A DNA stretch of 64,000 nucleotides, taken from an uncultured Synergistaceae bacterium (lineage in GTDB: Bacteria; Synergistota; Synergistia; Synergistales; 79-D21). A model generated the notes under the pieces. The model was not told the DNA's origin and searched no databases. It saw only the letters and a program-made list of their open reading frames with translations. Location: the NCBI GenBank assembly GCA_964521575.1, contig CAZFSR010000009.1, positions 10,055 to 74,054 of the forward strand, given 5' to 3'. Shown here piece by piece: positions 1,987 to 53,559 of the stretch. Position 1 is the first letter of the stretch; every line of letters starts with the position of its first letter. A program made the translations under genes and the position numbers.

Positions 1987-2037
1987 TGAGACGGTTTCAA
2001 TTTCGGGTGAAAACTGGCCGGAAAAGAGGTGTGCCGG

Positions 2038-30170: not shown

Positions 30171-30345
30171 GGACGGATCACGCTCCTCTCGTGGAATAAT
30201 GAATGCTGTATATCGCTAGAGGACATACGGGAAAAGAATAGCGTGAGTCGGGGGAATAATCAAACGATTCGGGAGAGTTTGACCCCTGGAAATAGGGCGC
30301 GCAGCGGTCTCCTGTGTTATAAAGGACTTAAACGGGAGGGATGAT

Positions 30346-31668: not shown

Positions 31669-31713
31669 GGCGGCTGCATATCGGGATTGCAATCAAGTCT
31701 GGGGGGCGTTGAA

Positions 31714-32820: not shown

Positions 32821-32837
32821 CAAGGAAGAAGGTCTCG

Positions 32838-34920: not shown

Positions 34921-34957
34921 CCTGAAAAGTCATACCAAAGTGGGGAGGTATGGGAGC

Positions 34958-36993: not shown

Positions 36994-37865
36994 TTGTTGT
37001 ACAGCTTCTTGGCGGGCTGGGAAACCAACTGTTCCAATATGCTCTTGGCAGGGCCCTATCTGAAAGGAGAGGGTTGCAGTTGAAGCTAGATCTGTCCTCC
37101 TTTAAGGACTACCCTTTAAGGAGTTATCGGCTGGGCAATTTTCGTATACAGGCGGAAATCGCTTCGGAAGAGGACATCCTGCAATGCGGTTACGGCCAGG
37201 GATTGATCGGAATGGCACAGAAAATTTGGGATAGGACGCACCCGTGGTATGCCAGAAGAATTGTCAGGGAGGAATCATTTCGCTTTTCCAAAGATATTTT
37301 CAAGGTCAGGGACAAAACTCTAATCAAGGGGTACTGGCAAAGCGAGAAGTACTTCATCGACATCGCCCAGGAGTTGCGAGACGAAATCGTGCTAAAAAGC
37401 AAAATGAGCGAAGAATCATTGGCAATCCTTGCCGAAATAAGGTCTGGAGAATCAGTGAGCCTACACGTGCGGAGAGGCGATTACGTGGAAAACCCGGTTA
37501 CCAATGCTTACCATGGTGTCTGTTCTCAGGATTATTATCGCCGGGCTATCGGAATTGTGAAGAAAAAAGTCAAGACAGAGACACAGTATTTTGTCTTTTC
37601 CGATGATCCGGATTGGGTGGAGAAATCCCTTGATATCGGGACGGATTTTCGAACAATCCGGCACAACGGTCTAGGCAAAGATTACGAAGATCTCATGCTG
37701 ATGTCGGCCTGCTCGAACCATGTGATTGCCAACAGTTCCTTCAGCTGGTGGGGGGCGTGGTTGTGCAAGAATCCTGGGAAAGTTGTCGTGGCTCCTTGTC
37801 AGTGGTTCGCCCAAGCCGGAAAGGACACAAGAGATCTGCTTCCGAAAAATTGGTTGACGTGTTAG
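36990..37865 (+). CDS. alpha-1,2-fucosyltransferase (GT11)
   Basis: GGLGNQLFQYA, GYWQSEKYF, HVRRGDY, FSDD, NSSFSWWGAWL. Confidence 0.93.
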   Translation: MIVVQLLGGLGNQLFQYALGRALSERRGLQLKLDLSSFKDYPLRSYRLGNFRIQAEIASEEDILQCGYGQGLIGMAQKIWDRTHPWYARRIVREESFRFSKDIFKVRDKTLIKGYWQSEKYFIDIAQELRDEIVLKSKMSEESLAILAEIRSGESVSLHVRRGDYVENPVTNAYHGVCSQDYYRRAIGIVKKKVKTETQYFVFSDDPDWVEKSLDIGTDFRTIRHNGLGKDYEDLMLMSACSNHVIANSSFSWWGAWLCKNPGKVVVAPCQWFAQAGKDTRDLLPKNWLTC

Positions 37866-38695
37866 GACCCACCTAGAAATTTTCCGGCGAACAATATAGA
37901 TTTGAATGCGTCTCTTAAAAGAAAAGCTTTGCCCCACAGACGGTCGATTGTTTTCCCTGAAGGAGATTCAGCGCTCCAACTGATAAAATCGTTTATTACG
38001 GATTTCCTGTCCGCCAATTCAGCCCGGTAAGCCTCTTTAGAGGGCAAAACTCCCCTGAGGCTGTTATAGGCATCATCCCGGTAATAGAGACGGGGTTCGT
38101 TGTCGTAGGCGAAGTCGGTCAGGGAGGCAACGCGAAGCCATAGAGCATAATCGTTGCTATTTTTGAAATCTGGTTTTTCGGGGAAACCGAACACCTTGTC
38201 AATTAAAGAACGATTTATCATGGCCGAACTGCAGATGACCCAATTCGATCTAAGGATTTTTTCTAGGCTTATGGCTGGAATTCGGAAATCTTGATATAGC
38301 CCCGTGACAGAACCATCTTTTCGAAGCCGGAGTGCGTTGGTGGAGCAGGCGAGCAAGCCGGTTTCTTTCACCAGGTTTATTTGCCTTTCAAGCTTGTCTG
38401 GGAACCAGATGTCATCGCTATCAAGAAAGGCGAGCCATTCTCCCCGAGCGGAAAGGATTCCCCTGTTCCTTGCGGGGGCTGGTCTTCCTGAATGTTGCCC
38501 GGGGATCCACCGGAGTTTTGGGTTGCACAAACTGGCGATCCTATTCCTGGAGTCATCCGTAGAACCATCATCACAAACAAGAACCTCGATATCCTCAACA
38601 GTCTGGGCAAGAGCGCTTTCGACTGCCTTGAAAAGGAGTTCGGCTCGATTATATGTAGGGATAATGACCGAGACTTGAGGAATCAATCGGTGCAC
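37862..38695 (-). CDS. glycosyltransferase family 2 (inverted within the cluster)
   Basis: VSVIIPTYN, CDDGSTD, ARNRG, FLDSDD; GTG start inferred. Confidence 0.85.
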   Translation of the reverse strand: MHRLIPQVSVIIPTYNRAELLFKAVESALAQTVEDIEVLVCDDGSTDDSRNRIASLCNPKLRWIPGQHSGRPAPARNRGILSARGEWLAFLDSDDIWFPDKLERQINLVKETGLLACSTNALRLRKDGSVTGLYQDFRIPAISLEKILRSNWVICSSAMINRSLIDKVFGFPEKPDFKNSNDYALWLRVASLTDFAYDNEPRLYYRDDAYNSLRGVLPSKEAYRAELADRKSVINDFISWSAESPSGKTIDRLWGKAFLLRDAFKSILFAGKFLGGS

Positions 38696-38788
38696 CCCCG
38701 TTCCATTCTTTATCTTACGGATTACATTATGTTTTTCAAGTGCCTGAGTGGGTGAAGAAGCGACTGGAGCCAAAGAGAGGGTTTGTTT

Positions 38789-40333
38789 ATGGGAGAAGAA
38801 GCAGGGACAAGGCAGGCGAAGAGGGAAGTTCGACACCCGGAAGCTTTAGGACGGATTGCTCTTTTCTCGGTCATTTTGTCCATACTAGGTCGATGCCTGG
38901 GCTATGTGCGGACCTTGATCGTTGCCTATTTCTTCGGGGTTACTCCACTTATGGATGCTTTCTCTATTGCCATGGGTATTACTGAATTTTTTGCCGCAAC
39001 AATCCGATCGTCTTTGCAGATGGCCCTGCTTCCGCAACTTTCGGTAGCACAACTCAGGGGGGGTGAGGAGGAAACCAGGCCACTAATGGGTTTTATTTCA
39101 CGCATAGTCCTTGTCTTGGCAGTGTTCTTTCTTTTCTTCTCGCTTCTTTTCCCTGTCCAGGTCGTCAGGATGTTCGCTTATGGCTTTACAGGACCTGTCC
39201 TGCAGTTATCGGCATTAACCCTGCGCCTTCTTTCTTTCTATTTGGTTGGATACACGGGCTATTGCCTTTACTCCGTCTGGGCTTTCCACAACAGGCGATA
39301 TCTCTTGCCCTCTGTACTCGAGGCAACTCTCAACATCCTGACGGTTATTTTCTTTATGCTTATCATGACCTTATCGAAATCTAAGGCACTTCCACTTTCG
39401 GTTGGATTGGCCTGGTGCATTCTTCTGCTTTCTATGGCGTTCCTTCAGCGAGATTTTCCCTGGAATGCAAGTCAGTACATGCCACATCATTTTAAGAAAT
39501 TTTCGAAAAACTTTATTTTTTGCCTGGGGTTGGTTGGATCGGGGGCACTCTACCAGGCCACGGACCGCTTTTTTGCTTCGCTTCTGCAGGGCGGTTCAGT
39601 CGCCGTGCTCAATTATTCAATCTTCTTGTTGTGGGTTCCTTTGGCGTTGTTGGAACCGGCTTTTCAGATTTTTTTCGCGGATATAGTTCATCTTCACTAC
39701 GATGGTCCAGAAAGGGCGCGTTTACGAATTTACGAAGCGATATCATTAGCCTTTTTTTACGGGATTCCGCTATCGATGTTTTTTCTCCTTTTTTCCCCGA
39801 GTGCCGTTAAGGCTTTGTTCGGGTACGGGGCTTTCGATAGCAATGCGGTTTCAAATACTGCAGCCTGCCTTGCGGCATATGGTGCAGGATTTGCCTTTAC
39901 TGCTGGGAACCACTTGCTTTGGAGGTACGGCCATGCTGCTGGGCGAAGTGGAGAGCTGCTTCTCATTGCATATCTATCTGTTCTTGCTAACGCAGTTCTG
40001 GATTGGGGCTTATCTCGAATATTCGGGGTCGCTGGTATTGCAATAGCGACAACGATTGTTACGAGCTTTACGTTTTGTTTGTTCATTTTACGGTTCATGG
40101 GTAAGGAATACTTCATCCCCCTTTTGCGACGTGCGGGTCTCTTCCTAATCCTTTCTATGCCATGGTTTTTTTGGGCCGGATTGCTCTGGCTTTCTTCGCC
40201 AATCCTAAAGTTCATTTCCGGAATTCTGGCATCATTTGCGGCTTTTTTCTTTTCAGAATACTGGTTGGGCAAATGGGAAATAAATCTGGAAGGAACCCCA
40301 ACTTTGCTGTTGAAAATGTTAAGAAGGAAATAG
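38789..40333 (+). CDS. MurJ/MviN-like (MOP superfamily) flippase
   Basis: LGRCLGYVR...DAF, TDRFFASLL, LFGYGAFD, GIAIATT; many TMs. Confidence 0.75.
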   Translation: MGEEAGTRQAKREVRHPEALGRIALFSVILSILGRCLGYVRTLIVAYFFGVTPLMDAFSIAMGITEFFAATIRSSLQMALLPQLSVAQLRGGEEETRPLMGFISRIVLVLAVFFLFFSLLFPVQVVRMFAYGFTGPVLQLSALTLRLLSFYLVGYTGYCLYSVWAFHNRRYLLPSVLEATLNILTVIFFMLIMTLSKSKALPLSVGLAWCILLLSMAFLQRDFPWNASQYMPHHFKKFSKNFIFCLGLVGSGALYQATDRFFASLLQGGSVAVLNYSIFLLWVPLALLEPAFQIFFADIVHLHYDGPERARLRIYEAISLAFFYGIPLSMFFLLFSPSAVKALFGYGAFDSNAVSNTAACLAAYGAGFAFTAGNHLLWRYGHAAGRSGELLLIAYLSVLANAVLDWGLSRIFGVAGIAIATTIVTSFTFCLFILRFMGKEYFIPLLRRAGLFLILSMPWFFWAGLLWLSSPILKFISGILASFAAFFFSEYWLGKWEINLEGTPTLLLKMLRRK

Positions 40334-40429: not shown

Positions 40430-40873
40430 ATGCTCAAGGACTTCAAGACCTTCATCCTGCGCGGGAACATGATGGACCTGGCGATCGGGATTATCCTGGG
40501 CGGGGCGTTTGGCGCCATCATCAAGTCCCTGGTGGAGGACGTCCTGATGCCGCCCATCGGCCTGGCTTTGGGGAACACGGATTTCACGGGCCTCTTCGTC
40601 GTCCTGAAAGAAGGAACGGCTCCCGGGCCTTACGCGTCGCTGGCAGCGGCAAAGGCGGCGGGAGCGGTCACCCTGAACTACGGGCTCTTCTTCACTGCCA
40701 TCGTCAATTTCCTGATTATCGGTTTCTGCATCTTTCTCATCGTCCGCTGGCTGAACAGGCTCATGCCGAAGCCGGAACCGGCCCCGGCGCCAGCCATGAA
40801 GGACTGCCCGTTCTGTCTTTCCAGCATCCCTGCCGGAGCGAAACGCTGCCCGCACTGCACGTCCGAGCTTTAA
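40430..40873 (+). CDS. mscL: large-conductance mechanosensitive channel with C-terminal CxxC-CxxC extension
   Basis: DFKTFILRGNMMDLAIGIILGGAFG, LNYGLF, VNFLI; tail CPFC...CPHC. Confidence 0.95.
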   Translation: MLKDFKTFILRGNMMDLAIGIILGGAFGAIIKSLVEDVLMPPIGLALGNTDFTGLFVVLKEGTAPGPYASLAAAKAAGAVTLNYGLFFTAIVNFLIIGFCIFLIVRWLNRLMPKPEPAPAPAMKDCPFCLSSIPAGAKRCPHCTSEL

Positions 40874-40919
40874 CCGCGGCGATACCGGACTGCTGGGCAA
40901 CTGGTTTTTGGTCCGTCCC

Positions 40920-40944
40920 GGGGGTTCCTGCCAAAGGAACCCCC
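40920..40944 (+). terminator. stem-loop after mscL
   Basis: GGGGGTTCCT-GCCAA-AGGAACCCCC; weak T tail. Confidence 0.55.
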
Positions 40945-41054
40945 TTCACAATGTGTACATCCCCCTGCCTGCGGCTGTATAATCCGGACATATCCGTTGC
41001 CTCCGGGTAAAAAGTAAACCTCACTTAAACTTCTTAGAAGGAGCGTGCGTTTTC

Positions 41055-42158
41055 ATGTTCACGGATTTGCTGACCGCCCTGGCCGTCGTCATCAACGGCA
41101 TCCCGCAGGGCATCCTGGCCCTGAGTTTCGGCTTCGCGGCCCTCCCCACGTCCCTGGCCTTCCTGGTGGGTATCGCCGGTTCCCTGGCCTTCAACTCGGT
41201 GGCCACAATCAGCTTCCAGGCTGAGACGATCACCCTGGCGGGGTCCCTCGGCCGGAACATCAGGGAGCGGCTGAGCCTGGTGTTCTGGGGCGGCATCTTC
41301 CTCCTCATTCCCTCGGTCCTGGGCATGAACGAGGCGATCGTGGCCTTCATCGGCCCCACCATCGTCACGTCGATGATGGCCGGCGTCGGCATCATGCTGG
41401 CCTTCGTGGCGGTCAACCTGTACGCCTCCGAGAAGTTCTCCGGTGCGGTCTCCTTCGTTTCGGCCCTGGCGGTCTGGTTCATCACGAAGGACCTGGCCAA
41501 GACGATCATCGTGTCGGTGCTGGCCTCGACCGCGGTCTACAACTATCTGCGCTACGTGGCGAAGAAGGACGTGGACGCTCCGGAGATCCACATGGAAAAC
41601 GAGCGTTTCCACTTCGGGAACATCGAGTGGTGCTTCTGGCGCAACCGGGCGGTTTTCCTCGGAGCGCTCGGCATCGCCTGCCTGAACATCGGGGCGAACA
41701 TCTCCTTCGGCAAGATCACGGGCAGCATCGCCAACGTGAACACGAACATCGACCACCTGGCGATCTACTCGAGCGTGGCGGACATCCTTTCGACCCTCTT
41801 CGGAGGCGGCCCGGTCGAGGCCATCATCTCCGGCACCGCCACGGCCCCGAACCCGCTGCGTTCCTCGGTGCTGATGATGGGCATCATGGCGGCGATCCTG
41901 CTTTTCAAGCTCCTGCCGGTGATCGGGCGGTACGTGCACCGGTCCTCGATCGCAGGGTTCCTGTTTATCCTGGGGACGTTCGTGACTTTCGCGACGAACA
42001 TCCAGGGCGCCATCGCCACGGCACCGACCTTTGCCGGACCTTACGGCTTCTCCCCCTGGGGGATGGTCATCGGTGCCACCACGCTGGTTTCGGCCCGCTG
42101 GAACCCGTTCTACGGACTGCTGGCCGGGCTGGGCATCAAGCTGTTCTTCCAGCTTTAA
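41055..42158 (+). CDS. NCS2/AzgA-like nucleobase permease
   Basis: Polytopic membrane protein (ISFQAET, GGGPVEAIISGT) co-transcribed with a purine PRTase. Confidence 0.7.
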   Translation: MFTDLLTALAVVINGIPQGILALSFGFAALPTSLAFLVGIAGSLAFNSVATISFQAETITLAGSLGRNIRERLSLVFWGGIFLLIPSVLGMNEAIVAFIGPTIVTSMMAGVGIMLAFVAVNLYASEKFSGAVSFVSALAVWFITKDLAKTIIVSVLASTAVYNYLRYVAKKDVDAPEIHMENERFHFGNIEWCFWRNRAVFLGALGIACLNIGANISFGKITGSIANVNTNIDHLAIYSSVADILSTLFGGGPVEAIISGTATAPNPLRSSVLMMGIMAAILLFKLLPVIGRYVHRSSIAGFLFILGTFVTFATNIQGAIATAPTFAGPYGFSPWGMVIGATTLVSARWNPFYGLLAGLGIKLFFQL

Positions 42159-42170
42159 GCGGTACGGACG

Positions 42171-42716
42171 ATGCCTGAATTCTACGAGCTGAAAGTGGCG
42201 GGGCTCACCCGCCGCCTCAAGAAGGTGCGGGTGGCGGACCACCTGGTGATCGCGTCGTTCGTCATGCTGGGGGACACGAAGCTGATCGAGGCTTGCGCGG
42301 ACGCCCTGCTCCCGCTTCTTCCCAAGGAGAAAATCGACATGCTGGTCTGCCTGGAGGCAAAGGGCATCCCCCTGACCCACGCCTTGGCGGTTCGGCTCGG
42401 CGTGGACTACATCACGGTCCGCAAGTCCGTGAAGAGCTACATGGAGAACCCCCTCGTGGTGGAGGTCCAGTCCATCACCACCGCCGGGAAGCAGGTGCTC
42501 GTCATGGACGGCGTTGACCGCGCCAAGGTGGAGGGACGTCGCATCTGCGTCGTGGATGACGTGGTTTCCACGGGCGGATCCCTGAGGTCGGTGGAGAAGC
42601 TGCTGGCTACGGCGGGGGCCGAGGTGGTTTCCAAGACCGCGGTGCTGCTTGAAGAGGGCGGCTATGACGGATCCGACCTCGTCTACCTGGAAAGGCTGCC
42701 GGTTTTCCCGGACTGA
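42171..42716 (+). CDS. purine phosphoribosyltransferase (Apt/Xpt-like)
   Basis: EAKGIP, RK, VVDDVVSTGGS PRPP-binding motif. Confidence 0.88.
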   Translation: MPEFYELKVAGLTRRLKKVRVADHLVIASFVMLGDTKLIEACADALLPLLPKEKIDMLVCLEAKGIPLTHALAVRLGVDYITVRKSVKSYMENPLVVEVQSITTAGKQVLVMDGVDRAKVEGRRICVVDDVVSTGGSLRSVEKLLATAGAEVVSKTAVLLEEGGYDGSDLVYLERLPVFPD

Positions 42717-42737
42717 AAGGTGCGTCTTAGGTTTTGT

Positions 42738-42763
42738 CAGGGGGGCGAAAGCCCCCCTTTTTC
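42738..42763 (+). repeat. left 26-bp direct repeat (terminator) of the NRPS cassette
   Basis: CAGGGGGGCGAAAGCCCCCCTTTTTC, identical to 48699-48724. Confidence 0.92.
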
Positions 42764-42846
42764 TTTCCCCTGCCCCGCTGATTGCTGTAACGGGTCTTTG
42801 TTTGGTAAGCTGGCTCAATGAAAGCAGGGTGACTGGGGGGAGTGTT

Positions 42847-43881
42847 ATGGGTTTGAGAGAAAGGTTCCCGCGCATTGTGGCGTTCATCATGAAGATCGGG
42901 TGCCTGGCTTTTCTTTTTTCCGGTGCCCTGCCAGTGGAGGCGGCATCATCCGCTTTGACCCCCATCCGTGCGGTGGTTCTGCCCTATATTACTTTTGCGC
43001 CGTTCTTCATCGCCAAGGACGAGGGGTATTTCGAGAAGGAGGGTCTGGACGTCGAGTTTGTCAGGCTGGTCCAGCCGATGGCGGGAGTGGCCGAGGTGGC
43101 CAAAGGCAGCATCGACATGACCCAGGTTGGCACGCGTGTCGGGATATTCAACGCTATGGGCCGGGGCGCAAACCTCCGCATCGTGGCGGACAAGGGCGGC
43201 TTTGCGGGGGAAAAAACGGCAACCAGCGGATTCCTGATCCGGAAGGAATTGCTTGACGCCAAGGGCAAACCTGACTGGGAGCGGATCAAAGGGCGGAAGG
43301 TCTCCGTGGATCCCACCAGCTTCTGGGGGTTCCTCTTCGAAAAGTACCTGTCTCGAAACGGCCTGAAGATGTCGGACTTCGATATCGAGGATTTGCCTGT
43401 AACGGTTCTGCCCGGGGCTTTCGATCAAGGGAACGTGGCGATCGCCCACGTTACCGAGCCCTGGGTTACGAAAATCACCCGCGGAGGGAAGGTCGTGCTG
43501 CTCGTGGCAGACGCCAGCCTGTCGCCGAACGCGCATTTCTCGGGAATCTGTTTTGGCCCCTCCCTGCTGGAAGGGAATCCCGAGGCAGGGGAGAGGTTCA
43601 TGGTGGCCTACCTTAAGGGTGTCCGCCAGTACAACAAGGGAAAAACGGACCGGAACATCGGGATCATCGCCAGGAACACCGGCCTGGACAGCCGAAGTGT
43701 CGCCGAGTCGGCGTGGCCGGCAATTCGCAACGACGGCCAAATGGATATCTCCGGCTTTGTCGAGTTTCAGCGGTGGGCAAAGGGAAAAGGATATCTTGAT
43801 GTCGTCGTCCCTGCTGAGAAAATCTGGGATCCCCGCTTCGTCGAACAAGCTAACCGCAAGCTGGGCGGTAAGAACCCCTGA
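42847..43881 (+). CDS. ABC substrate-binding protein, NMT1/SsuA/TauA-like
   Basis: Signal peptide; APFFIAKDEGYFEKEGLDVEF, GSID, FMVAYLKG; GGGGAG RBS at ATG 42847. Confidence 0.85.
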   Translation: MGLRERFPRIVAFIMKIGCLAFLFSGALPVEAASSALTPIRAVVLPYITFAPFFIAKDEGYFEKEGLDVEFVRLVQPMAGVAEVAKGSIDMTQVGTRVGIFNAMGRGANLRIVADKGGFAGEKTATSGFLIRKELLDAKGKPDWERIKGRKVSVDPTSFWGFLFEKYLSRNGLKMSDFDIEDLPVTVLPGAFDQGNVAIAHVTEPWVTKITRGGKVVLLVADASLSPNAHFSGICFGPSLLEGNPEAGERFMVAYLKGVRQYNKGKTDRNIGIIARNTGLDSRSVAESAWPAIRNDGQMDISGFVEFQRWAKGKGYLDVVVPAEKIWDPRFVEQANRKLGGKNP

Positions 43882-43882
43882 A

Positions 43883-46429
43883 ATGGAACTCGACGCCTAT
43901 CTCTCCAGGGGCTTTTGGGAAAGATTCGTAGAGATCGCCGACCGTTTTCCCGATATCCCGGCCTGGTCGCGGGAAGGGGAGAGCCTCGCCTACGGGGAGA
44001 TCCTTTCCCGGGCGGAAGACTTGGCCGGGCAGCTGGACAAGGTTACGCACGGCATTCGCGGGCTTGTGGTCGAAGTGGAGGCGACGCTGGTTCCGGGCAG
44101 CATCGTTTCTTTCCTGGCGGTTCTCAAGGCAGGGGCCGTCATCTTACCGGTGGATCCGGCCTTTCCCCTGGATTTTCGGCAGGAGATCCGCCGGCAGGTT
44201 TCCCCCATTGCCCGCCTGGAGGCAGGCGATGGCCCGGGAGATGTCTTTTTGCGACAGGACAAAATTCACGGTCCGGAGGGACCGCCCGTTCCTTTTGCAC
44301 CCGAAGATGCGGCCGTACTTCTCTGGACCTCGGGCTCCACAGGAAAGCCGAAAGGGATTCTTCTACCCCAGCAGGCTTTCCTCCTTGATGCGTGGAACCG
44401 CGTCAGGGATTATCACGTTCGAGCCGGCGACAGGGTCGCATGGACTGCCCCGCCTGTCCTTGCGGGACCCATCGGGATGCTTTGCTTCTCTCTCCTCGGT
44501 GGTGCGACGCTCGTTCCTTTCCCCCTGAAATCGATCGATGCGGGCGCCCTTTCCGGGCTTCTCCGCAGGGAGCGGGTAAGCTACTTCAATCCCCCGGTTT
44601 CCTATTTCAGGCAGTGGATGCTTGCCGAGGACGGCAAAGGATCCTTGCCCGACTTGCGCACGGTTGTCCTAGGCGGGCAGCCCGTTAGCTGGAAGGATGT
44701 CCGTGCCGTCCAGGGGAGCCTGTCCGAAGGAGCGAAACTGGTCCACCGCTACGCGGCCTCGGAAGCGGGCTTAATCTCCCAGGCCTTTTTCGACAGGTTT
44801 CATGCTACCGAAAACGAGGGGAGCGTACCGCTGGGATTTCCTCCCATGGGGAAGCGAACGGTCATCCTCGGGGAGGACGGAGCAATCCTGCCGGATGGGG
44901 AGATAGGTGAAATCGGTGTGGTCAGCCGCCACGGGGCGCTGGGGTATTGGAAGCGCCCCGACCTGAACAGTGAACGTTTTCGAAGGCTGCCCGGCGGGGA
45001 GACCCTGTTCCTCTCCGCAGACCTGGGCCGATTGAGGCCGGACGGCCAGCTGGAATTGCTTGGCAGAAGGGACGGCCAACTGAAAATCAGGGGCTTCCGG
45101 GTAGAGCCTGCCCAGGTCGAGGTGGCCTTGAGAAGCCTGCCCGGGGTGGCGGATGCGGTCCTGCTTCCGTGGGCCCCGCCTGCTACTCCCGAAGAAAATG
45201 AGCTTGTCGCCTACGTCGAGCCTGCCAGGGGTTCAAGGCTGGCTACCGACGGGTTGAGAGCCGGCCTCCGGGAAACCCTGCCAGAGTTCATGGTCCCTTC
45301 CAGGTACGTCCTGCTGGAAGAAATGCCGAGAACCCGGAACGGCAAGCCCGATCGTACTCGGCTCCCGGACCCGGGAACCTCCCGGCCGGACCTCACGGTG
45401 CGTTTTGTCCCGCCGGAAGGCAAGACGGAGGAGAGGCTTGCAGGGTTGTGGCACGAAGTGCTGGGGATCTCTCCCATCGGGGCGGAAGACGACTTTTTTG
45501 ATCTTGGGGGGCACTCCCTTTTGGCCGTTCGCTTGTTTTCCCGCATCGAAACGGTTTTCGGCAGGGACATTCCCCTGGCAGAGATGCTCCAGGCCAGAAC
45601 CGTGAGATCCATGGCGCGCCTGCTGGAGGCCCCGAAAGGTAAAAGGGAATGGAAGTGCCTTGTCCGGATCAACGTGGTGGGAAACCGGCCCAAGGTTTTT
45701 ATCGTTCATGGGGGTGGCGGCAATGTCCTTTGTTTTGCCCGGCTTGCGGCCCGCTTGACTGACTATGACGTATACGGTTTGCAGGCTCTGGGGCTGGACC
45801 GGCGCCACCTGCCCCAGCTTTCGGTGAGGGGGATGGCGGAGAGGTATGCGGCCGAAATCCGCGAGGAGCAGCCCCACGGCCCGTTTCGGATCGTCGGCTA
45901 TTCCTTTGGCAGTATCGTGGCCTTCGAACTGGCCCTTCTCCTGCAGGCCTCGGGTGAAGAGGTGGGCTTCCTGGGCCTGCTGGACAGGGCTATGCCTGCC
46001 CGGTCGTCCGCCCCTCCCCGCGCCAATCTCGTTTCGGAACTATGGGACCGGGCGACGACCCGCCTCAAGTTCCATTTGAGGCTTAATGCAGGGCGGCTTC
46101 TGCTGGGGGCAGGCCTGCCCGTTCCGTTCATGCAAAAAATCTACAATGCCGCGAACGGCTTCATGAGCCGGGGTTATGTCCCGCCGGCGGCATTCATGGG
46201 CAACATGGCCGTCTTCCAGACGGCGGAAAGACGAAACGAAGGGATCGATCCGGCTTCGGAGAGAGGATGGGGACCGCACGTAAAGGGGGAAACCCGGGTT
46301 TATGCCGTCCCGGGGACACATCACACCCTGCTTGATGATCCTCATGTCCGGGATGTAGCCAGGGTCCTTGATGCAGCCCTTGGCGAACCTTGTTCTTGTC
46401 CCCCCGGGGGGAAGTATCCGGGAAGTTGA
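43883..46429 (+). CDS. stand-alone NRPS-like enzyme, A-PCP-TE
   Basis: A3 WTSGSTGKPKG, A8 GRRDGQLKIRGFRVE, A10 NGK, PCP FFDLGGHSL, TE GYSFGS and GTHHTL. Confidence 0.92.
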   Translation: MELDAYLSRGFWERFVEIADRFPDIPAWSREGESLAYGEILSRAEDLAGQLDKVTHGIRGLVVEVEATLVPGSIVSFLAVLKAGAVILPVDPAFPLDFRQEIRRQVSPIARLEAGDGPGDVFLRQDKIHGPEGPPVPFAPEDAAVLLWTSGSTGKPKGILLPQQAFLLDAWNRVRDYHVRAGDRVAWTAPPVLAGPIGMLCFSLLGGATLVPFPLKSIDAGALSGLLRRERVSYFNPPVSYFRQWMLAEDGKGSLPDLRTVVLGGQPVSWKDVRAVQGSLSEGAKLVHRYAASEAGLISQAFFDRFHATENEGSVPLGFPPMGKRTVILGEDGAILPDGEIGEIGVVSRHGALGYWKRPDLNSERFRRLPGGETLFLSADLGRLRPDGQLELLGRRDGQLKIRGFRVEPAQVEVALRSLPGVADAVLLPWAPPATPEENELVAYVEPARGSRLATDGLRAGLRETLPEFMVPSRYVLLEEMPRTRNGKPDRTRLPDPGTSRPDLTVRFVPPEGKTEERLAGLWHEVLGISPIGAEDDFFDLGGHSLLAVRLFSRIETVFGRDIPLAEMLQARTVRSMARLLEAPKGKREWKCLVRINVVGNRPKVFIVHGGGGNVLCFARLAARLTDYDVYGLQALGLDRRHLPQLSVRGMAERYAAEIREEQPHGPFRIVGYSFGSIVAFELALLLQASGEEVGFLGLLDRAMPARSSAPPRANLVSELWDRATTRLKFHLRLNAGRLLLGAGLPVPFMQKIYNAANGFMSRGYVPPAAFMGNMAVFQTAERRNEGIDPASERGWGPHVKGETRVYAVPGTHHTLLDDPHVRDVARVLDAALGEPCSCPPGGKYPGS

Positions 46430-46442
46430 AGGAGACTTAGGC

Positions 46443-47225
46443 ATGTTGCACTGCAGGGGGCTTTCAAAACGTTTCGAGAGCGGGAACGGTTCCGTTACCG
46501 CCCTGGAGAGGGTCGACCTCGACCTGGCCGAAGGGGAGTTCCTGTGTGTTCTGGGCCCGTCCGGCTGCGGGAAGTCCACGCTCTTGCGGTTGGTGGCCGG
46601 GATCGTTCCCCCATCGGCAGGCAGCGTCGAGTTCGTTCCGGGATGCGGGCGTCCCCCGGGACGCCCCAGGTGCGCCATGGTGTTCCAGGAACACGGCTTG
46701 TTTCCCTGGATGACGGTTCTCGAAAACACGGGCTTCGGCCTGAAGATGCAGGGATTCGCACGGAAAGAGCGGGAAGCGATGTCGATAACCGTTCTGGAAC
46801 AGGTCGGCATGGGGGCCTTCGGGCGGCATTATCCCCACGAACTGTCGATGGGCATGCGCCAGCGTGTGGCGCTGGCCCGGGCTTTTGTTTCTTCCCCCGA
46901 TGTCCTCCTGATGGATGAGCCGTTTGCATCGCTGGACGCCCAGGCAAGGGCCGTCCTCCAGCAAGACCTGATTTCCTGGCAGGAAGATCGCGGCACGCCG
47001 GTCATTTTCATTACGCATGACATCGCTGAATCCCTTGTCCTTGCGGACCGGATCCTTGTCCTTTCGGCACGGCCTGGGAGGGTTTTGGCGAGCATCCCTC
47101 TGCCTCCGGGCCGAGGCCATTCGCCGGTGGCCGGTTTTGATCCCGATCTCGGGGCGATCGGCCGGGAGATCTGGGGCATGCTGGGGCAGGAATCCTGTCC
47201 CGAGCTGCAGGGTGCGATCTTTTGA
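46443..47225 (+). CDS. ABC ATP-binding protein (TauB/SsuB-like importer)
   Basis: GPSGCGKST, VFQEHGLFPW, ELSMGMRQR, LLMDEPF, FITHD. Confidence 0.92.
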   Translation: MLHCRGLSKRFESGNGSVTALERVDLDLAEGEFLCVLGPSGCGKSTLLRLVAGIVPPSAGSVEFVPGCGRPPGRPRCAMVFQEHGLFPWMTVLENTGFGLKMQGFARKEREAMSITVLEQVGMGAFGRHYPHELSMGMRQRVALARAFVSSPDVLLMDEPFASLDAQARAVLQQDLISWQEDRGTPVIFITHDIAESLVLADRILVLSARPGRVLASIPLPPGRGHSPVAGFDPDLGAIGREIWGMLGQESCPELQGAIF

Positions 47226-47995
47226 GTGCGAGGTTGAAGCAAATCCCACGGGCCCTGTTCCTGCCGTGCATCCTCCTCCTGGGCTGGGAATTGGGGGTCC
47301 GGGCAGGATGGGTTTCCCCCATGTTCTTCCCCGCTCCGACGACGATCGCGAAGACCCTGGCCGAACTGGCGAAAAGCGGGCGTTTGGGTGCCAATCTTCT
47401 TGCCACCCTGCTACGGGTGGCCCTGGGCCTGTCGCTGGGGGTTGGCCTGGGCCTGCCGCTCGGGTTGTTGATGGGCTGGAAGCCTTCATTCCGGGCTATC
47501 GTCGATCCCATGGTTGGCGCGACTCATGCCCTTCCAAAGATCGCCATCTACCCGATCCTGATGGTCCTCTTCGGCATTGGGGACGGTTCACGGGTCGCCT
47601 TGATCACGCTGGGGGCGTTTTTTCCCATGCTGGTCAACTCCATGACTGCGGTGCGCCAAATCGATCCCCGTTATTTCGAAGTCGCGGAAAGCTACGGTGC
47701 CAAGGGGTTCCGGATCCTCTCCGAGGTCATCTGGCCGGGAAGCCTGCCCCTTGTCCTTGCGGGCTTCCGCCTGGCCCTGAACGGAGCCTTGCTGCTGGGC
47801 ATCGCAGCGGAGCTCCTCACGGCCCGGGAGGGGTTGGGCGGGATGATCTGGATGGCCTGGCAGACCTTCAGGACGGAAGAACTCTATGCGGCGCTTTTCG
47901 TCACGGGACTCCTCGGTGTGGCTTTCAACAGCCTGACGGACCTGATGGCCGGGATTCTCGTCCCATGGCGGGCAGGGACAGAAAACGGCAAATAA
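47222..47995 (+). CDS. ABC importer permease (TauC/SsuC-like)
   Basis: FFPAP, LPKIAIYP, EAA loop (EVAESYGA), GLGGMI. Confidence 0.9.
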   Translation: MSARLKQIPRALFLPCILLLGWELGVRAGWVSPMFFPAPTTIAKTLAELAKSGRLGANLLATLLRVALGLSLGVGLGLPLGLLMGWKPSFRAIVDPMVGATHALPKIAIYPILMVLFGIGDGSRVALITLGAFFPMLVNSMTAVRQIDPRYFEVAESYGAKGFRILSEVIWPGSLPLVLAGFRLALNGALLLGIAAELLTAREGLGGMIWMAWQTFRTEELYAALFVTGLLGVAFNSLTDLMAGILVPWRAGTENGK

Positions 47996-47999
47996 GAGG

Positions 48000-48689
48000 G
48001 TGAAGAAACGTTTGCAGCCGCAAAACTGGCAACCGCTCTCCCCAAGCTTTCCGGTCAAGGTCTGGACCGTTTCCGTTTCTTCGGTTCTTGGTACTTGCGG
48101 GACTGCAGGGCTTTCAGATGCCGAGCGGGACCGGTCCGGGAGGTTTCGGTGCGAGGAGGATTCGATGCGCTTCTGTGCGAGCCGCCTACTCTTGCGAGAG
48201 GTCCTCGGGAGGCATCTGGGCATGAGGCCGGGGGACCTCCAGCTAGAAAAGGCCCCCGGAGGCAAGCTCACCGTCGTTTTGCCCCCCTGCTCACCCCCCG
48301 TGTTTTTCAGCCTTTCACGGTCCGGCGATTTTTGCACCGTCGCTCTTTCAGGTTCCGCCGAGGTCGGGGTGGATATCGAAAAAACAAGGGTTTTCCCGGA
48401 CTGGCCGGCCGTAGCCCAGGCTTGGCTGAGCAAGGGAGAAAGAAGCGCCATAACGGCCCTGGTTGGAGAGAACTCCCGTGCCGAAGCTTTCTTCAGGCTG
48501 TGGTGCGCACGGGAGGCTGCGGCGAAAGCCCTGGGGCTAGGGCTTGCCCTGGATCCTCGTTCTGCGGGGAGCCTTGAGGGGATCCTGGAGGGGGGGCGGG
48601 TCGTGGCCGTGTTCGGGGGAAGAACGGTCGAAGTGGCCGAGCTGGAGGCCCCCCAAGGGTACCGGCTTGCCGTGGCAAGTGAGGCATGA
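48000..48689 (+). CDS. Sfp-type 4'-phosphopantetheinyl transferase
   Basis: GKL, FSLSRSG, VGVDIE, WCAREAAAKALGLGL; start uncertain. Confidence 0.85.
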   Translation: MKKRLQPQNWQPLSPSFPVKVWTVSVSSVLGTCGTAGLSDAERDRSGRFRCEEDSMRFCASRLLLREVLGRHLGMRPGDLQLEKAPGGKLTVVLPPCSPPVFFSLSRSGDFCTVALSGSAEVGVDIEKTRVFPDWPAVAQAWLSKGERSAITALVGENSRAEAFFRLWCAREAAAKALGLGLALDPRSAGSLEGILEGGRVVAVFGGRTVEVAELEAPQGYRLAVASEA

Positions 48690-48698
48690 GTGCTTCTG

Positions 48699-48724
48699 CA
48701 GGGGGGCGAAAGCCCCCCTTTTTC
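48699..48724 (+). repeat. right 26-bp direct repeat (terminator) of the NRPS cassette
   Basis: Identical to 42738-42763; abuts the MFS stop codon. Confidence 0.92.
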
Positions 48725-49979
48725 ATTCCCTTTCCCGGACCAGGAAGGGCAGCAGGGCAAACATAGCCAGTCCCAGCGTCGCCCCGGCGTAGAAGGGGGC
48801 ATGGGGGCCGAAGCGCAGAAAAACAAGGCCCATGACCAGGGGGCCGACGGTTTGTCCCAGCCGGAGGACCATGCCGTTGAGGGACATGAAAACGGCGCGG
48901 TTCTCTTCGGGTGCCAGGTCGGAAAGCAGGGCCTGCGTCGCGGGAATGTTCATCCCCTGGGCGCACCCGTAGAGTGCCGTGGCGAAAAGCAGGAACGGAA
49001 GCCCGGGCATCAGCGGGATCAGGACCAGGGCCAAGGCGAAGAGGATGAACGACGTCCGCAGGACGTTGCTTTCCCGATAAATCCTGCCCAGCCGTCCGGC
49101 CTGGGAGGCGAGGATGGCGTTCGAGACCGACATGGATGAGGCCATGAGGCCGATGGAAAGGGGAGAAGCCCCGAACTTCGAGGACATCAGGACGGGCAGG
49201 TAGGTGTGGAAGGATCCGTAGAGGATGACGAAGGTCGATGTGCTGGCGAGAAAGAGCCCCAGGATGCGCGGGTCGCGCGCCATGCGGGCGCCCTGCAGCA
49301 GGTAGAGCTCGAGGGGAGGTTTCGATTCGGGGAGGGGAGGGACCTTGAGGATGAAAAGGGAGGCAAGGCCCACGGGAACGGCCAATAGCGGCAGGGCGAA
49401 GGGGGCATGCCAGCCCAGAAGCCCGAGGGTCCCGCCGAGGGCGGGGTAGATGGCCGTTCCCACGCTCAGCATCCCGGCGTTGAAACCGAGGGCGTCGATG
49501 CGCTTGTTTCCCCTGTAGAGGTCCCCGACGAGGGTCACGTTCATGCCGCTGAGCGAAGCGGCCCCCATCCCCTGGAGGAATCTCAGGGCGAGGAGGAGAT
49601 CGAAGTCTCGGGTGAGGGCGCAGGAGGCCCCCGCGAGGGCGAAGAGGAAGAGCGAGGGCACGAGCACGGCCTTGCGCCCCACGCGGTCTGCCATCACGCC
49701 CAGGAAGGGCGGGAGAAAGACGCCGGGGAGCGTGAAGGCCGTAATCAGCCAGCTGACCTGGGCGGGAGAGATGCCGAGGTCAGCGGAGATGGCCGGGAAA
49801 AGGGGGGCGACGCTGGCGACCCCAAGTACGGAGATCAGGGTGACGCCGAACACGACCTGCAGATTGGCGTCTCTGCAAAGGCTGAAATCAGGCTTTCGGG
49901 ATTCCGGGGCCGAACTTTCACCCCGTTTTTTCCTCCAGGCCGATTGTGCCGCTTCCCTGACCCACTTGTTCAGCACCAT
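48723..49979 (-). CDS. MFS transporter (DHA1-like)
   Basis: GVMADRVGRK motif A, RFLQGMG, GQTVGP; about 12 TMs. Confidence 0.88.
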   Translation of the reverse strand: MVLNKWVREAAQSAWRKKRGESSAPESRKPDFSLCRDANLQVVFGVTLISVLGVASVAPLFPAISADLGISPAQVSWLITAFTLPGVFLPPFLGVMADRVGRKAVLVPSLFLFALAGASCALTRDFDLLLALRFLQGMGAASLSGMNVTLVGDLYRGNKRIDALGFNAGMLSVGTAIYPALGGTLGLLGWHAPFALPLLAVPVGLASLFILKVPPLPESKPPLELYLLQGARMARDPRILGLFLASTSTFVILYGSFHTYLPVLMSSKFGASPLSIGLMASSMSVSNAILASQAGRLGRIYRESNVLRTSFILFALALVLIPLMPGLPFLLFATALYGCAQGMNIPATQALLSDLAPEENRAVFMSLNGMVLRLGQTVGPLVMGLVFLRFGPHAPFYAGATLGLAMFALLPFLVRERE

Positions 49980-50069: not shown

Positions 50070-50672
50070 ATGGAAAAGCGTGCGGAAAGCGATTACCCGA
50101 TCGAGGTCCTTTTGGCGCGAAGATGGAGCCCGAGGGTTTTTTCGGGAAGAAGCGTGGATGCGGAAACCGTGTGCAGCCTTCTCGAGGCGGCCCGGTGGGC
50201 TCCGTCCTGCTTCAACGAACAGCCCTGGAGTTTCATCGTGGCGACGAAGGAGGATCCTGGGGCGTTCAGTGACCTTCTCGGCTGCCTTCGCGAGGCCAAC
50301 CAGGCCTGGGCGAAGCATGCACCGGTGCTCATGGTGGCGGTCGCCAAGGCGGCCTTCGACCACAACGGCAAGCCGAACCGCCACGCGGGGCACGACGTGG
50401 GGCTGGCTGTGGAGAATCTCATGCTCCAGGCGGTTTCGATGGGGATGTTCGCTCACGCCATGGCGGGGTTCGACGCAGCGAAAGTGAGGGAACGTTACGG
50501 GGTGCCGGAAGGGCACGACCCTCTCGTGGCGATCGCGGTGGGCTACCCGGGGGATCCCGGGGATCTCCCCGACGACTTGAAGGAAAAGGAGCTGGCCCCG
50601 CGGGAGAGAAAACCTCTCGGCCGCTTCGTGTTCGGGCTGTCCTGGGGAAAGCCCTGGAGCGGCCTTCGGTGA
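50070..50672 (+). CDS. nitroreductase family protein
   Basis: RRWSPRVF, AARWAPSCFNEQPW, HDVG, AVGYPG. Confidence 0.9.
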   Translation: MEKRAESDYPIEVLLARRWSPRVFSGRSVDAETVCSLLEAARWAPSCFNEQPWSFIVATKEDPGAFSDLLGCLREANQAWAKHAPVLMVAVAKAAFDHNGKPNRHAGHDVGLAVENLMLQAVSMGMFAHAMAGFDAAKVRERYGVPEGHDPLVAIAVGYPGDPGDLPDDLKEKELAPRERKPLGRFVFGLSWGKPWSGLR

Positions 50673-50718
50673 GAAAGGGCCGTGTTTGGAAGCCGACAGT
50701 GCAGAAGGGGGAGTTCGA

Positions 50719-51081
50719 ATGATCCGAAAGGCTTCGGAATTGTCGAGGATTCGCAGGGAAGCGTTCACCAACGGGGTGGGAGGGGGGTTTGCCACCCACG
50801 CGCTTCCGCCGGGGGAGAATGTCCCCGGGAGCCGGTTCCAGATGGTTTCCCGGATCGAGCTGGATCCGGGGTCGAGCATCGGGGCCCATCTTCACGCGGA
50901 GAACGAGGAGATTTACTGGATCCTTTCCGGAGAGGGCGTGTACAACGAGGACGGCCGGGAGGTTCCCGCCGTCCCGGGCGACGTTTTCATCGCCCTGCAG
51001 GGGCACAGCCATGGCCTGAAGAACACGGGGTCCGGCCCGCTCGAGATGATCGCGGTGATCGCTGCCGACCGGAATCCCTGA
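50719..51081 (+). CDS. cupin domain protein
   Basis: GAHLHAENEEIYWILSGEG, GHSHGLKN. Confidence 0.88.
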   Translation: MIRKASELSRIRREAFTNGVGGGFATHALPPGENVPGSRFQMVSRIELDPGSSIGAHLHAENEEIYWILSGEGVYNEDGREVPAVPGDVFIALQGHSHGLKNTGSGPLEMIAVIAADRNP

Positions 51082-51088
51082 GAACCGC

Positions 51089-51610
51089 CTAGAGAATCGC
51101 GAGCCCCGCCAGCCCGAACAGGAGGAAAAGGGCTGGCGGGTTTTCCCTGAAGAAACGGAACCGGAGGGCCGCGATCCCCGCTGCGAAGAGCAGGGCGGGA
51201 AGGATGCCCGAAAAGGCCGTCTGGGCCAGGGGCAGGAACGCCAGGGTCAAAAGGGCGGCCACAGTGGGTCTCAGGGCGTTCCTGAAACGGTCCATGCACC
51301 CTTCGGGGCCGCACTTGAGCAGGGCAGAAACGGCGATGACGATAATCAGCGGGGCGCCGCAGACGGAGAGGGTGGCCACCGTCGCCCCGGTGAACCCGGC
51401 GCGCTGGAAGCCGACGAATGTGGCGGCATTCACGGCGATGGGGCCGGGGGTCACCTGGGCCAGGGCGAGGACCTGGTTGAAGCCGTCGAGGGTCAGCCAG
51501 CGGTAGTTGTCCACCAGGATGTGCCGGATCAGGGGAAGGGTCGAGATCCCGCCGCCGAAAGCCCCGATTCCCACTTGGGCGAAGCCCCAGGCCAGCTTCA
51601 GCAGTTCCAT
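51089..51610 (-). CDS. short-chain chromate-ion transporter subunit (ChrA family)
   Basis: GAFGGG, AQVTPGPIAVNAATFVG. Confidence 0.88.
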   Translation of the reverse strand: MELLKLAWGFAQVGIGAFGGGISTLPLIRHILVDNYRWLTLDGFNQVLALAQVTPGPIAVNAATFVGFQRAGFTGATVATLSVCGAPLIIVIAVSALLKCGPEGCMDRFRNALRPTVAALLTLAFLPLAQTAFSGILPALLFAAGIAALRFRFFRENPPALFLLFGLAGLAIL

Positions 51611-52140
51611 CGGTTTCCCTCCGGAAGAACGAGGCGGAGCCCGACCCCGCAGGCCATGGCGACCAGTGGGTGGAGGCCTGCCCACAAAATGAGGGCGATC
51701 ACCAGGGCATAGGGAAGGAAATTGATCCAGCGCGCCTTTCCCACGAGGGAACGCTTGACTTCCCCCCACACCAGGGTGGCGACGAGTGCGGCCACCGCGC
51801 AGAGGACGCCCTTGAAGAAGGCCGCCAGGAGCACGGAATCCCGGTGGCCCATCACGAAGCCGGAAAGGATGAGGATGGCGGAGAAAGGGGGGACCAGGAT
51901 TCCCGCCACGGAGGCAAGAGCCCCGGGTATCCCCGCGATCTTCCGGCCGGCCAGCCATGCCGAGCTCGTCGCGATGGGGCCGGGCATGGAGGTCGCCAGG
52001 GCGGCGATGTCGGACATCTCCTCTTCCGGGAAACCCCGCTTACGGAGTTCGGTTTTTGCCATCGCCAGGATGGCGATGCCGCCGCCGAAGGTGACGGCGC
52101 TGATTTTGAAGAACATGAGGAAGAGGGCCATAGGGCTCAT
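51598..52140 (-). CDS. short-chain chromate-ion transporter subunit (ChrA family)
   Basis: TFGGG, SMPGPIA, ILVPP. Confidence 0.88.
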   Translation of the reverse strand: MSPMALFLMFFKISAVTFGGGIAILAMAKTELRKRGFPEEEMSDIAALATSMPGPIATSSAWLAGRKIAGIPGALASVAGILVPPFSAILILSGFVMGHRDSVLLAAFFKGVLCAVAALVATLVWGEVKRSLVGKARWINFLPYALVIALILWAGLHPLVAMACGVGLRLVLPEGNRWNC

Positions 52141-52216
52141 TCTGCGGTTCTCCTTCCGGGTGCGCATCGGTTCCATTTTAACCGAAGCGCGGGAACCCCT
52201 TTTCGGATGCCCCCAT

Positions 52217-52247
52217 ACTTGCAAGTGATTTGCAAATACACTATCAT
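52217..52247 (+). promoter_or_regulatory. promoter with a Fur/Zur-type operator
   Basis: ACTTGCAAGT-G-ATTTGCAAAT (TTGCAA-N5-TTGCAA) overlapping -35 TTGCAA, 17 bp, -10 TATCAT. Confidence 0.7.
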
Positions 52248-52254
52248 CCTTTCC

Positions 52255-52701
52255 ATGGAAACCCTTTGCAATGCAGCCCTGCTGCTGAAGTCGAACGGGA
52301 TGCGGGTCACCCCGGCGCGCGTTCTCCTGCTGGAAGCCCTCCATTCCGGGAGAGGGCTTTTCACGGCGCAGGAACTTCATGGATTCCTGCCGGCCGGGAG
52401 CGCCGACCTTGTCACCGTCTACCGCTTCCTGGCCCTTCTCGTCAAGGCGAGGCTCGCGCGTGAGGTCGCCGGAACGGACGGCGTCGCCTACTACGAGATG
52501 GCCTGCAGGCACAACCCGGTCCATCCGCATTTCGAATGTCTCGGCTGCGGCAGGATCCTATGCCTGCCGGTTTTCCTGGAGGAAGATTCCGACCGGGTTT
52601 ATGCCTACGGAGAAGGACACGACATCGAGAGCGTTTCTGTTGTCTTCCGGGGAACCTGCTCGGAATGCCTGGCAAAGGCAGAGAAGGAGGAAAAAGGATG
52701 A
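52255..52701 (+). CDS. Fur-family regulator (probably Zur)
   Basis: MRVTPAR, TVYRFL, HPHFECLGCG, GTCSEC; heads the znuACB operon. Confidence 0.88.
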   Translation: METLCNAALLLKSNGMRVTPARVLLLEALHSGRGLFTAQELHGFLPAGSADLVTVYRFLALLVKARLAREVAGTDGVAYYEMACRHNPVHPHFECLGCGRILCLPVFLEEDSDRVYAYGEGHDIESVSVVFRGTCSECLAKAEKEEKG

Positions 52702-53549: not shown

Positions 53550-53559
53550 CCGCAAAACC

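Follow-up and report, generated by a model that had tools for sequence, protein, structure and literature searches.

A stand-alone adenylation-carrier-thioesterase enzyme lacking Asp235 and encoded with an ABC importer in an uncultured Synergistaceae bacterium

A 64,000-nucleotide stretch of DNA from an uncultured Synergistaceae bacterium (NCBI GenBank assembly GCA_964521575.1, contig CAZFSR010000009.1, positions 10,055 to 74,054 of the forward strand; the whole stretch is referred to here as the window) contains a gene for a stand-alone three-domain enzyme resembling a nonribosomal peptide synthetase (NRPS), composed of an adenylation (A) domain, a peptidyl carrier protein (PCP) domain and a thioesterase (TE) domain, and designated here A-PCP-TE. 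In this protein and throughout its family the position of GrsA Asp235, a residue conserved in A domains that act on alpha-amino acids (PMC12283262, PMC11253843), is occupied by alanine, and the gene is part of a conserved five-gene module that also encodes an ATP-binding cassette (ABC) importer and a 4'-phosphopantetheinyl transferase (PPTase). The explanation that we favor, and consider reasonably probable, is that A-PCP-TE activates a non-alpha-amino and probably anionic acid, and that it is functionally tied to the importer.

The domains recognized by Pfam are AMP-binding (residues 17–356; PF00501, 141 bits against a cut-off of 29.9), AMP-binding_C (residues 412–488; PF13193, 37.1 bits against a cut-off of 24.5), PP-binding (residues 517–581; PF00550, 59.9 bits) and Thioesterase (residues 604–831; PF00975, 106 bits), all of which score above their cut-offs, and the same scan found neither a condensation (C) domain nor a ketoreductase (KR) domain in the protein. 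Two observations back the start at position 43883, namely the N-termini of orthologues and the position (43881) at which the upstream gene stops. An AlphaFold2 (AF2) model has a mean predicted local distance difference test score (pLDDT) of 86, and its top matches among folds in the PDB are EntF, AB3403, SrfA-C and LgrA.

A homologue search places A-PCP-TE in a tight group of about 13 clusters (838–854 aa, 45–100% identity), here called the family, at whose edge the scores fall from 744 to 406 bits, and beyond which there are ordinary NRPSs at no more than 36% identity. A profile search gave no further members, and scanning of genome contigs with the generic NRPS motifs DDFFDLGG and KIRGFRVEP returned only canonical NRPSs (27–37% identity). 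When 1.84 billion representatives were searched with a profile, the best 150 matches were multi-module mega-synthetases with the exception of family member P0003, a result that is uninformative on the breadth of the family because the scores of mega-synthetases are summed over their modules. The family-specific peptide pattern PPVS[YF][YFC]R[QH]W has 26 matches in JGI metagenome contigs, two of which are family members, both with the same neighboring genes; family DNA was found in sludge, wastewater and anaerobic-digester metagenomes.

Several observations support the view that A-PCP-TE is a functional enzyme. Down to 45% identity, the family has an invariant A3 motif, A5 Glu, A7 Asp, A8 motif and A10 Lys, an invariant PCP Ser (Ser545, in GGHS) and an invariant TE triad of Ser674, Asp701 and His813. 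The gene is under purifying selection, the ratio of non-synonymous to synonymous substitution rates (dN/dS) being 0.13–0.24 in comparisons with five orthologues and paralogues, and 0.10–0.19 for the individual domains against the closest orthologue (0.19 for the A core). The initial annotation of this gene, made from the letters of the sequence, reported intact NGK (Lys488), GGHSL (Ser545), GYSFG (Ser674) and GTHH (His813) motifs and took the enzyme to be active; all of these residues prove to be invariant in the family, and with the dN/dS values and a cognate PPTase gene in the operon they make an active enzyme the likely interpretation.

The specificity pocket of the adenylation domain

There are several features that set the pocket apart. 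First, Asp235 is replaced. In a HMMER comparison with LgrA the query residues vlagpigm lie over sfdgsald with no gap, such that FD(235)xS becomes L-A194-G-P, and in a MAFFT alignment of 103 full A domains (the window protein and proteins from the first homologue search) the Ala194 column is Ala in 20 of 20 family sequences and Asp in 73 of the 82 relatives outside the family. Neither alignment puts an Asp at 235 in A-PCP-TE, and there is none within 10 residues of Ala194. A helix of the AF2 model begins exactly at residue 194, in agreement with the location of GrsA Asp235 on the pocket helix. The initial annotation's ungapped A4 motif with LAGP in place of FDAS is thus borne out, and its YAASE reading of A5 is also present. 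Its unusual A7 motif, SADL, does occur (FLSADLG) but is given no weight here, because it is confined to the window sequence; other family members have TGD, TAD or TSD, and Asp380 alone is invariant. Likewise, the Ala-Gly-Pro pocket that it proposed is right for positions 235 (Ala) and 236 (Gly), but the Pro is at 237, which is not a code position, and position 239 is Gly. The bare loss of Asp235 is not rare; of the nearest A domains, about one in nine is without it, mostly in stand-alone proteins of the same A-T-TE order (T, thiolation or carrier domain).

Second, the family has the A5 motif YA[ATVC][ST]E, in which neither Gly324 nor the conserved Pro325 is retained. Of the 82 nearest relatives, the nine without Asp235 have all lost the A5 Pro, as have eight of the 73 with Asp235 (Fisher p=8e-8). 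A similar double change is described for the keto-acid domain StsA, in which residue 235 is hydrophobic and the A5 Pro is replaced by Met, and which is inactive when the Pro is restored (M415P); in hydroxy-acid domains, residue 235 is Ala or Gly (review PMC11253843). Ala194 agrees with the small or hydrophobic residue at 235 that characterizes keto- and hydroxy-acid domains, but not with the Val at code position 1 that marks the keto-acid-activating A-T-TE enzymes (PMC10316625).

Third, code position 322 is an arginine (Arg289) in every family sequence (20 of 20), whereas not one of the 82 relatives has an arginine there. With code positions mapped by motif register according to the list in PMC11253843, the family has Ala (235), Gly (236), Gly, Ala or Gln (239), Val (278, the least certain column of the alignment), Val, Ser, Ala or Thr (299), Gly (301), Arg (322), Leu (330), Ile or Val (331) and Lys (517), giving a family-specific code of A-G-x-V-x-G-R-L-[IV]-K. 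No family member has an acidic residue at any of the nine pocket positions, and the only charged one is the invariant Arg at 322, which suggests that the substrate carries an additional anionic or strongly polar group. In the A-domain alignment two relatives with an Asp-like code have His at 322. His322 and Lys278 occur in Stachelhaus-type codes of domains that activate Asp.

Finally, A-PCP-TE scores 209 bits against TIGR01733 ('amino acid adenylation domain'), below the curated cut-off of 317.4. The combination of a lost Asp235, a lost A5 Pro, a cationic pocket residue and this low score points to a substrate that has no alpha-amino group. The initial annotation had arrived at a non-amino-acid substrate from the A4 region, and the invariant Ala235, the missing A5 Pro and the lack of acidic pocket residues speak for the same interpretation; what is added here is Arg322, the signature value of the lost A5 Pro, and the importer context.

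A five-gene module with an ABC importer

The genes around A-PCP-TE (Table 1) were mapped by tblastn against an annotated orthologous contig together with Pfam and NCBIfam. The module begins with a binding-protein gene, whose stop is separated from the A-PCP-TE start by a gap of 1 nt, and continues with genes for an ABC ATPase, a permease and a PPTase. The transport genes have the composition of a NitT/TauT-type importer, with a secreted NMT1-type binding protein (Pfam NMT1, 45.7 bits against a cut-off of 20.5), a BPD_transp_1 permease and an ABC ATPase. All full-length copies of the binding protein have a signal-peptide-like N-terminus, the copy in locus L001 being cut at the contig end. An AF2 model of the binding protein made from its single sequence has a pLDDT of 38, too low for use. 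NCBIfam scores place the PPTase closest to HetI-like proteins, below cut-off. The names SaoA and SaoP (selenium-associated ABC) were considered for the transporter and rejected, as the NCBIfam scores are far under the cut-offs and the context in which that family is described is a different one.

The association of these genes is constant. All five are present together in every locus that spans the whole module, and loci cut at a contig end show an adjacent subset; wherever the upstream side is visible, the binding-protein gene is immediately upstream of the synthetase gene. The module occurs in two unrelated neighborhoods, that of the window and that of loci L088 and L093, where it has no major facilitator superfamily (MFS), Zur or ZnuABC genes beside it and the operon runs into glycosyltransferase genes. 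The five module proteins of the window and L088 are 52–76% identical, and nothing else in the surroundings is common to both. Two loci (L003 and L089) have the binding-protein/synthetase pair twice, together with one ATPase-permease pair and one PPTase. There are two subfamilies of synthetases, 40–46% identical to each other, and two of binding proteins, 53–61% identical, and the synthetase subfamilies pair consistently with the binding-protein subfamilies. The best evidence for a link between the binding protein's ligand and the enzymatic reaction is this co-duplication and consistent pairing. Rfam searches (gathering and E-value modes) revealed neither a riboswitch nor any other RNA from which a ligand could be named, and literature searches found no described system of this five-gene composition.

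Table 1. Coordinates of the A-PCP-TE gene, its motifs and the neighboring features in the window
Feature	Position	Strand	Remarks
A-PCP-TE (NRPS-like) gene	43883..46429	+	Translation of 848 aa; Pfam domains; AF2 model
A3 motif TSGSTGKPKG (ATP phosphate loop)	44327..44356	+	Invariant in family
A4 string DRVAWTAPPVLAGPIGMLCFSLLGGATLV	44429-44515	+	Residues 183-211
A4 pocket helix LAGPIGM	44459..44479	+	Ala194 (44462-44464) = GrsA Asp235; Gly195 = 236; Gly198 = 239
A5 motif HRYAASE	44744..44764	+	Arg289 (44747-44749) = 322; Gly324 to Ala, Pro325 to Ala; Glu294 kept
A7 FLSADLG and A8 hinge GRRDGQLKIRGFRVEP	45008..45109	+	Asp380 invariant
A10 motif RNGKPD	45335..45352	+	Catalytic Lys488 (= GrsA Lys517)
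PCP core DDFFDLGGHSLLA	45488..45526	+	Phosphopantetheine-attachment Ser545
TE triad	45890..46330	+	Ser674 (GYSFG), Asp701 (LLDR), His813 (GTHH)
MscL	40430-40873	+	
Polytopic membrane protein	41055-42158	+	367 aa; no family match
Adenine-phosphoribosyltransferase-subfamily gene	42171-42716	+	Terminator hairpin after it
Terminator-like hairpin, 5' copy of 38-nt direct repeat	42738..42775	+	After phosphoribosyltransferase gene
NMT1/SsuA-like binding protein	42853..43881	+	N-terminal signal peptide; Pfam NMT1 and NMT1_2
ABC ATPase (taurine/sulfonate/nitrate-type)	46443..47225	+	Pfam ABC_tran
ABC importer permease (SsuC/TauC-like)	47222..47995	+	BPD_transp_1
Sfp-type PPTase	48000..48689	+	Last gene of module; Pfam ACPS and AASDHPPT_N; start backed by L088
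Same terminator hairpin, 3' copy	48699..48736	+	Directly after PPTase gene
MFS transporter	48723-49979	-	
Nitroreductase (+), cupin (+), ChrA (-), Fur/Zur (+), ZnuABC (+)	about 50070-55186	mixed	

Likely substrate and role of A-PCP-TE

A-PCP-TE is an uncharacterized variant among known enzyme types. The same stand-alone A-T-TE layout, without a C domain, is found in the fungal enzymes TdiA, AtrA, HapA and CorA and the bacterial enzymes RalA and EchA (PMC10316625; PMC9047271). As in the family, these aryl-keto-acid synthetases have an aliphatic residue in place of Asp235, and the TE is their sole releasing or condensing domain. Compared by description only, the TdiA/AtrA/RalA/EchA group has Val at code position 1 (PMC10316625) where the family has Ala-Gly; moreover, the Arg322 of the family is not obviously suited to the hydrophobic aryl-pyruvates of TdiA-type enzymes, and the family, unlike that group, is encoded with an ABC importer and a PPTase. 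None of the top homologue matches is named as an A-T-TE aryl-keto-acid synthetase. The depsipeptide-type domains of StsA/cereulide and enniatin synthetase A1, as well as engineered TycA, have Ile, Gly or Ala instead of Asp235 (PMC11253843), the family having Ala, and StsA shares the second change at the A5 Pro (Met415, essential for activity). The family nonetheless differs in having Ala, Thr, Val or Cys rather than Met at that position, in the additional change of Gly324 to Ala, and in standing outside the multimodular C-A-(KR)-T lines in which the depsipeptide keto- and hydroxy-acid domains reside, with neither C nor KR. The best sequence matches (about 25–36% identity) and fold matches, EntF, SrfA-C, AB3403 and LgrA, have the ATP, carrier and TE motifs in common with the family, but they carry a C domain, Asp235 and the Pro of YGPTE and activate alpha-amino acids.

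Other stand-alone bacterial A-T-TE proteins from the homologue search, among them P0021, P0061, P0034, P0039 and P0058, have the same architecture, and several lack both Asp235 and the A5 Pro, including P0021 and P0061 with E...GMTE, but they are only 30–33% identical to the family and have different codes. The gene contexts of P0034 and P0058 include no binding-protein or ABC genes. Tandem stand-alone A-T-TE genes (901 and 922 aa) are present in locus L091 (1153-7370), an unrelated metagenome contig, and one of the two, P0034, has Met at 235 and GSTE in A5; A-T-TE enzymes without the Asp seem to be common in metagenomes and largely uncharacterized. The new elements here are a family code that includes Arg322 and a partnership, conserved and co-duplicating, of the enzyme with a PPTase and a binding-protein-dependent importer.

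From these features we infer what class of compound the enzyme acts on, what Arg289 and the TE do, and in which direction the enzyme and the transporter are connected, as follows. The A domain would activate a carboxylic acid without an alpha-amino group, the likeliest being an alpha-keto or alpha-hydroxy acid, which is the best-precedented class, or another acid with an anionic or polar group that could be bound by Arg289. The acyl group would be loaded onto the PCP, itself presumably converted to the holo form by the PPTase of the same operon, and would then be freed by the TE through self-condensation or cyclization, transfer to an acceptor, or hydrolysis. The nearest solved TEs, those of NocB, FAS, Pks13 and EntF, make hydrolysis, acceptor transfer and oligomerizing cyclization all plausible. 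The binding protein would most likely recognize the same acid, which the ABC transporter would import for activation, or alternatively the released product; import followed by activation is favored because the second lineage has no exporter beside the module.

It seems unlikely that the substrate is instead a cytosolic primary metabolite, such as a keto or hydroxy dicarboxylate, whose product is exported, for example by the MFS transporter, and then re-imported, as in metallophore and signal systems. The substrate would still be a non-amino acid, and the transporter would handle the product rather than the substrate. The co-divergence of synthetase and binding protein fits a product-receptor pair, small biosynthetic clusters typically have a PPTase of their own, and in most loci the module has Zur-ZnuABC nearby and is adjoined by an MFS efflux gene on the opposite strand, for which the best NCBIfam matches are siderophore exporters, though far below the cut-offs. 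However, the MFS, nitroreductase, cupin and Zur-ZnuABC genes are not beside the module in L088 and L093 and are less conserved than it (74–81% compared with 87–93% identity), and a search of the operon promoters did not reveal TTGCAAATGATTTGCAA, the likely Zur box in front of zur. Moreover, no NitT/TauT-type binding protein is known to serve as a metal-chelate receptor. For the zinc genes themselves, the missing TTGCAAATGATTTGCAA box and the absence of Zur-ZnuABC from L088 and L093 led us to reject a functional link, and their proximity was judged to reflect shared ancestry of gene order.

Two further explanations concern the A domain itself. That the substrate is an amino acid after all, whether beta-, gamma-, omega- or N-substituted, or an alpha-amino acid held without Asp235, is distinctly improbable, notwithstanding the precedent of McyG, which has Val at 235 and yet adenylates Phe (PMC11253843), and the fact that the nearest homologues and best folds are amino-acid-activating NRPS modules. 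The family has no acidic pocket residue and its only charged one is Arg, it has lost the A5 Pro of amino-acid domains, and its TIGR01733 score is below cut-off; beta-amino-acid domains such as VinN, moreover, retain the Asp (PMC11253843). We give hardly any credence to the idea that the A domain is degenerate and inactive, leaving the protein as a carrier-thioesterase or scaffold, with the A4, A5 and A7 changes representing decay. All three motifs are indeed off consensus in the window sequence, and GGE is GGQ throughout the family, but the deviations are fixed and conserved down to 45% identity rather than scattered, the dN/dS of the A core is like that of the other domains, the catalytic motifs from A3 to the A10 Lys are invariant as described above, and the AF2 model is confident over the A domain.

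There are nonetheless a number of points that weigh against activation of an imported anionic acid by A-PCP-TE, in addition to the McyG precedent and the uncertain column at 278. No member of the family among the matches has a functional name or has been characterized, and the case for an active enzyme is a comparative one. The part assigned to Arg289 in substrate binding likewise follows from sequence register. Import and loading followed by plain hydrolysis would be futile. NitT/TauT-type binding proteins span many ligand classes, and the one encoded here scores only 50.7 bits against TIGR01728 (the aliphatic sulfonate SsuA family), far under the cut-off of 163.5, such that its ligand class is not fixed as sulfonate. 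Finally, contig fragments along the whole operon in sludge runs labeled as RNA suggest that the operon is transcribed, but they are of low depth and may include DNA carry-over.

Returning to the favored explanation of a non-alpha-amino acid and a linked importer, a possible but more doubtful extension is that the module constitutes an undescribed 'import-coupled thiotemplate' system, in which co-evolution would have fitted binding protein and A domain to the same anionic non-amino acid, and Arg322 would newly define specificity for non-amino substrates that are acidic. The imported acid would then be loaded directly onto a carrier-TE enzyme, rather than activated by a coenzyme A ligase, and converted or transferred within the cell. 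Most known stand-alone A-T-TE activators of non-amino acids belong to fungal pigment pathways, with a few from bacteria, and A-PCP-TE defines a small bacterial family with its own code, whose hosts are probably Synergistota-like anaerobes living in sludge and digesters; given the strict pairing and co-duplication, the ligand of the binding protein should point to the substrate or product of the enzyme. If Arg322 does bind an acidic group, it would provide an extra specificity rule for substrates outside current code tables, and if the enzyme is an ordinary keto-acid activator, the outcome would be a matter of routine annotation.

Flanking sequences and neighboring genes

The module is bracketed by the two copies of a 38-nt direct repeat, which are identical at 35 of 38 positions; shuffled sequences gave no chance matches. 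The repeat is composed of a G+C-rich hairpin, CAGGGGGGCGAAAGCCCCCCTTTTTC, and a C-rich tail. In L086, L089 and L001 the PPTase gene is likewise followed by the hairpin core; L086 has a diverged upstream copy as well, and L089 and L001 have the exact core only after the PPTase gene. The repeat may represent the boundary of a rearrangement or insertion, or a terminator that has been reused.

The 367-aa membrane protein encoded upstream has no match in Pfam, NCBIfam or the PDB and is 94% identical in L086, and the gene that follows it passes the NCBIfam cut-off for an adenine phosphoribosyltransferase subfamily (NF005592; the pair is at 41055-42716 in the window). The two have the appearance of a unit for taking up and salvaging nucleobases, in which the transporter would belong to an undescribed family. 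They were considered as part of the module and rejected, as the terminator hairpin is in between and both are missing in L088. The proteins of the block extending from MscL to the PPTase (40430-48689) are 87–97% identical between the window and L086, compared with 74–81% for the flanking MFS, nitroreductase, Fur, ZnuA, ZnuC and sugar transferase proteins and 84–91% for the cupin, the ChrA pair and ZnuB; this reflects either stronger constraint on the block or its more recent exchange.

Tandem copies of an element TTGCAAATGATTTGCAA(A) are found in the zur promoters of the window (52162-52224), L089 (16682-16782) and L001 (7640-7741), and this is probably the Zur/Fur operator of the lineage.

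A polysaccharide cluster occupies about 30300-40300 of the window, with genes for a Bac_transf protein, a GDP-mannose 4,6-dehydratase, an epimerase/reductase, several GT4 and GT2 glycosyltransferases, a GT11 fucosyltransferase-like protein and a MurJ-like flippase. Its G+C content is 0.48–0.52 (32–40 kb), compared with about 0.62–0.65 elsewhere in the window, and L086 has a different set of glycosyltransferases at the same site; this glycan locus is variable and was probably exchanged horizontally. In the second lineage (L088 12559-15343, L093 4902-7687) the PPTase gene and a GT4 gene share 4 nt, and next come a GT2 gene and a gene for a stand-alone LPG_synthase_C domain, which hints that the product in that lineage may be tied to a glycoconjugate. 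A general link of the module to glycosyltransferases was rejected, as the GT4 and GT2 proteins of L088 and L093 are only 28–30% identical to those of the window and do not represent a conserved partnership.

Elsewhere in the window, the Tex protein shares 68% identity with its counterpart in Aminithiophilus ramosus (Synergistota) and 65% with proteins of Thermodesulfobacteriota, such that the host is probably, though not certainly, Synergistota-like. A 1311-aa open reading frame (2029-5964) has a C-terminal autotransporter beta-domain, indicating a diderm host.

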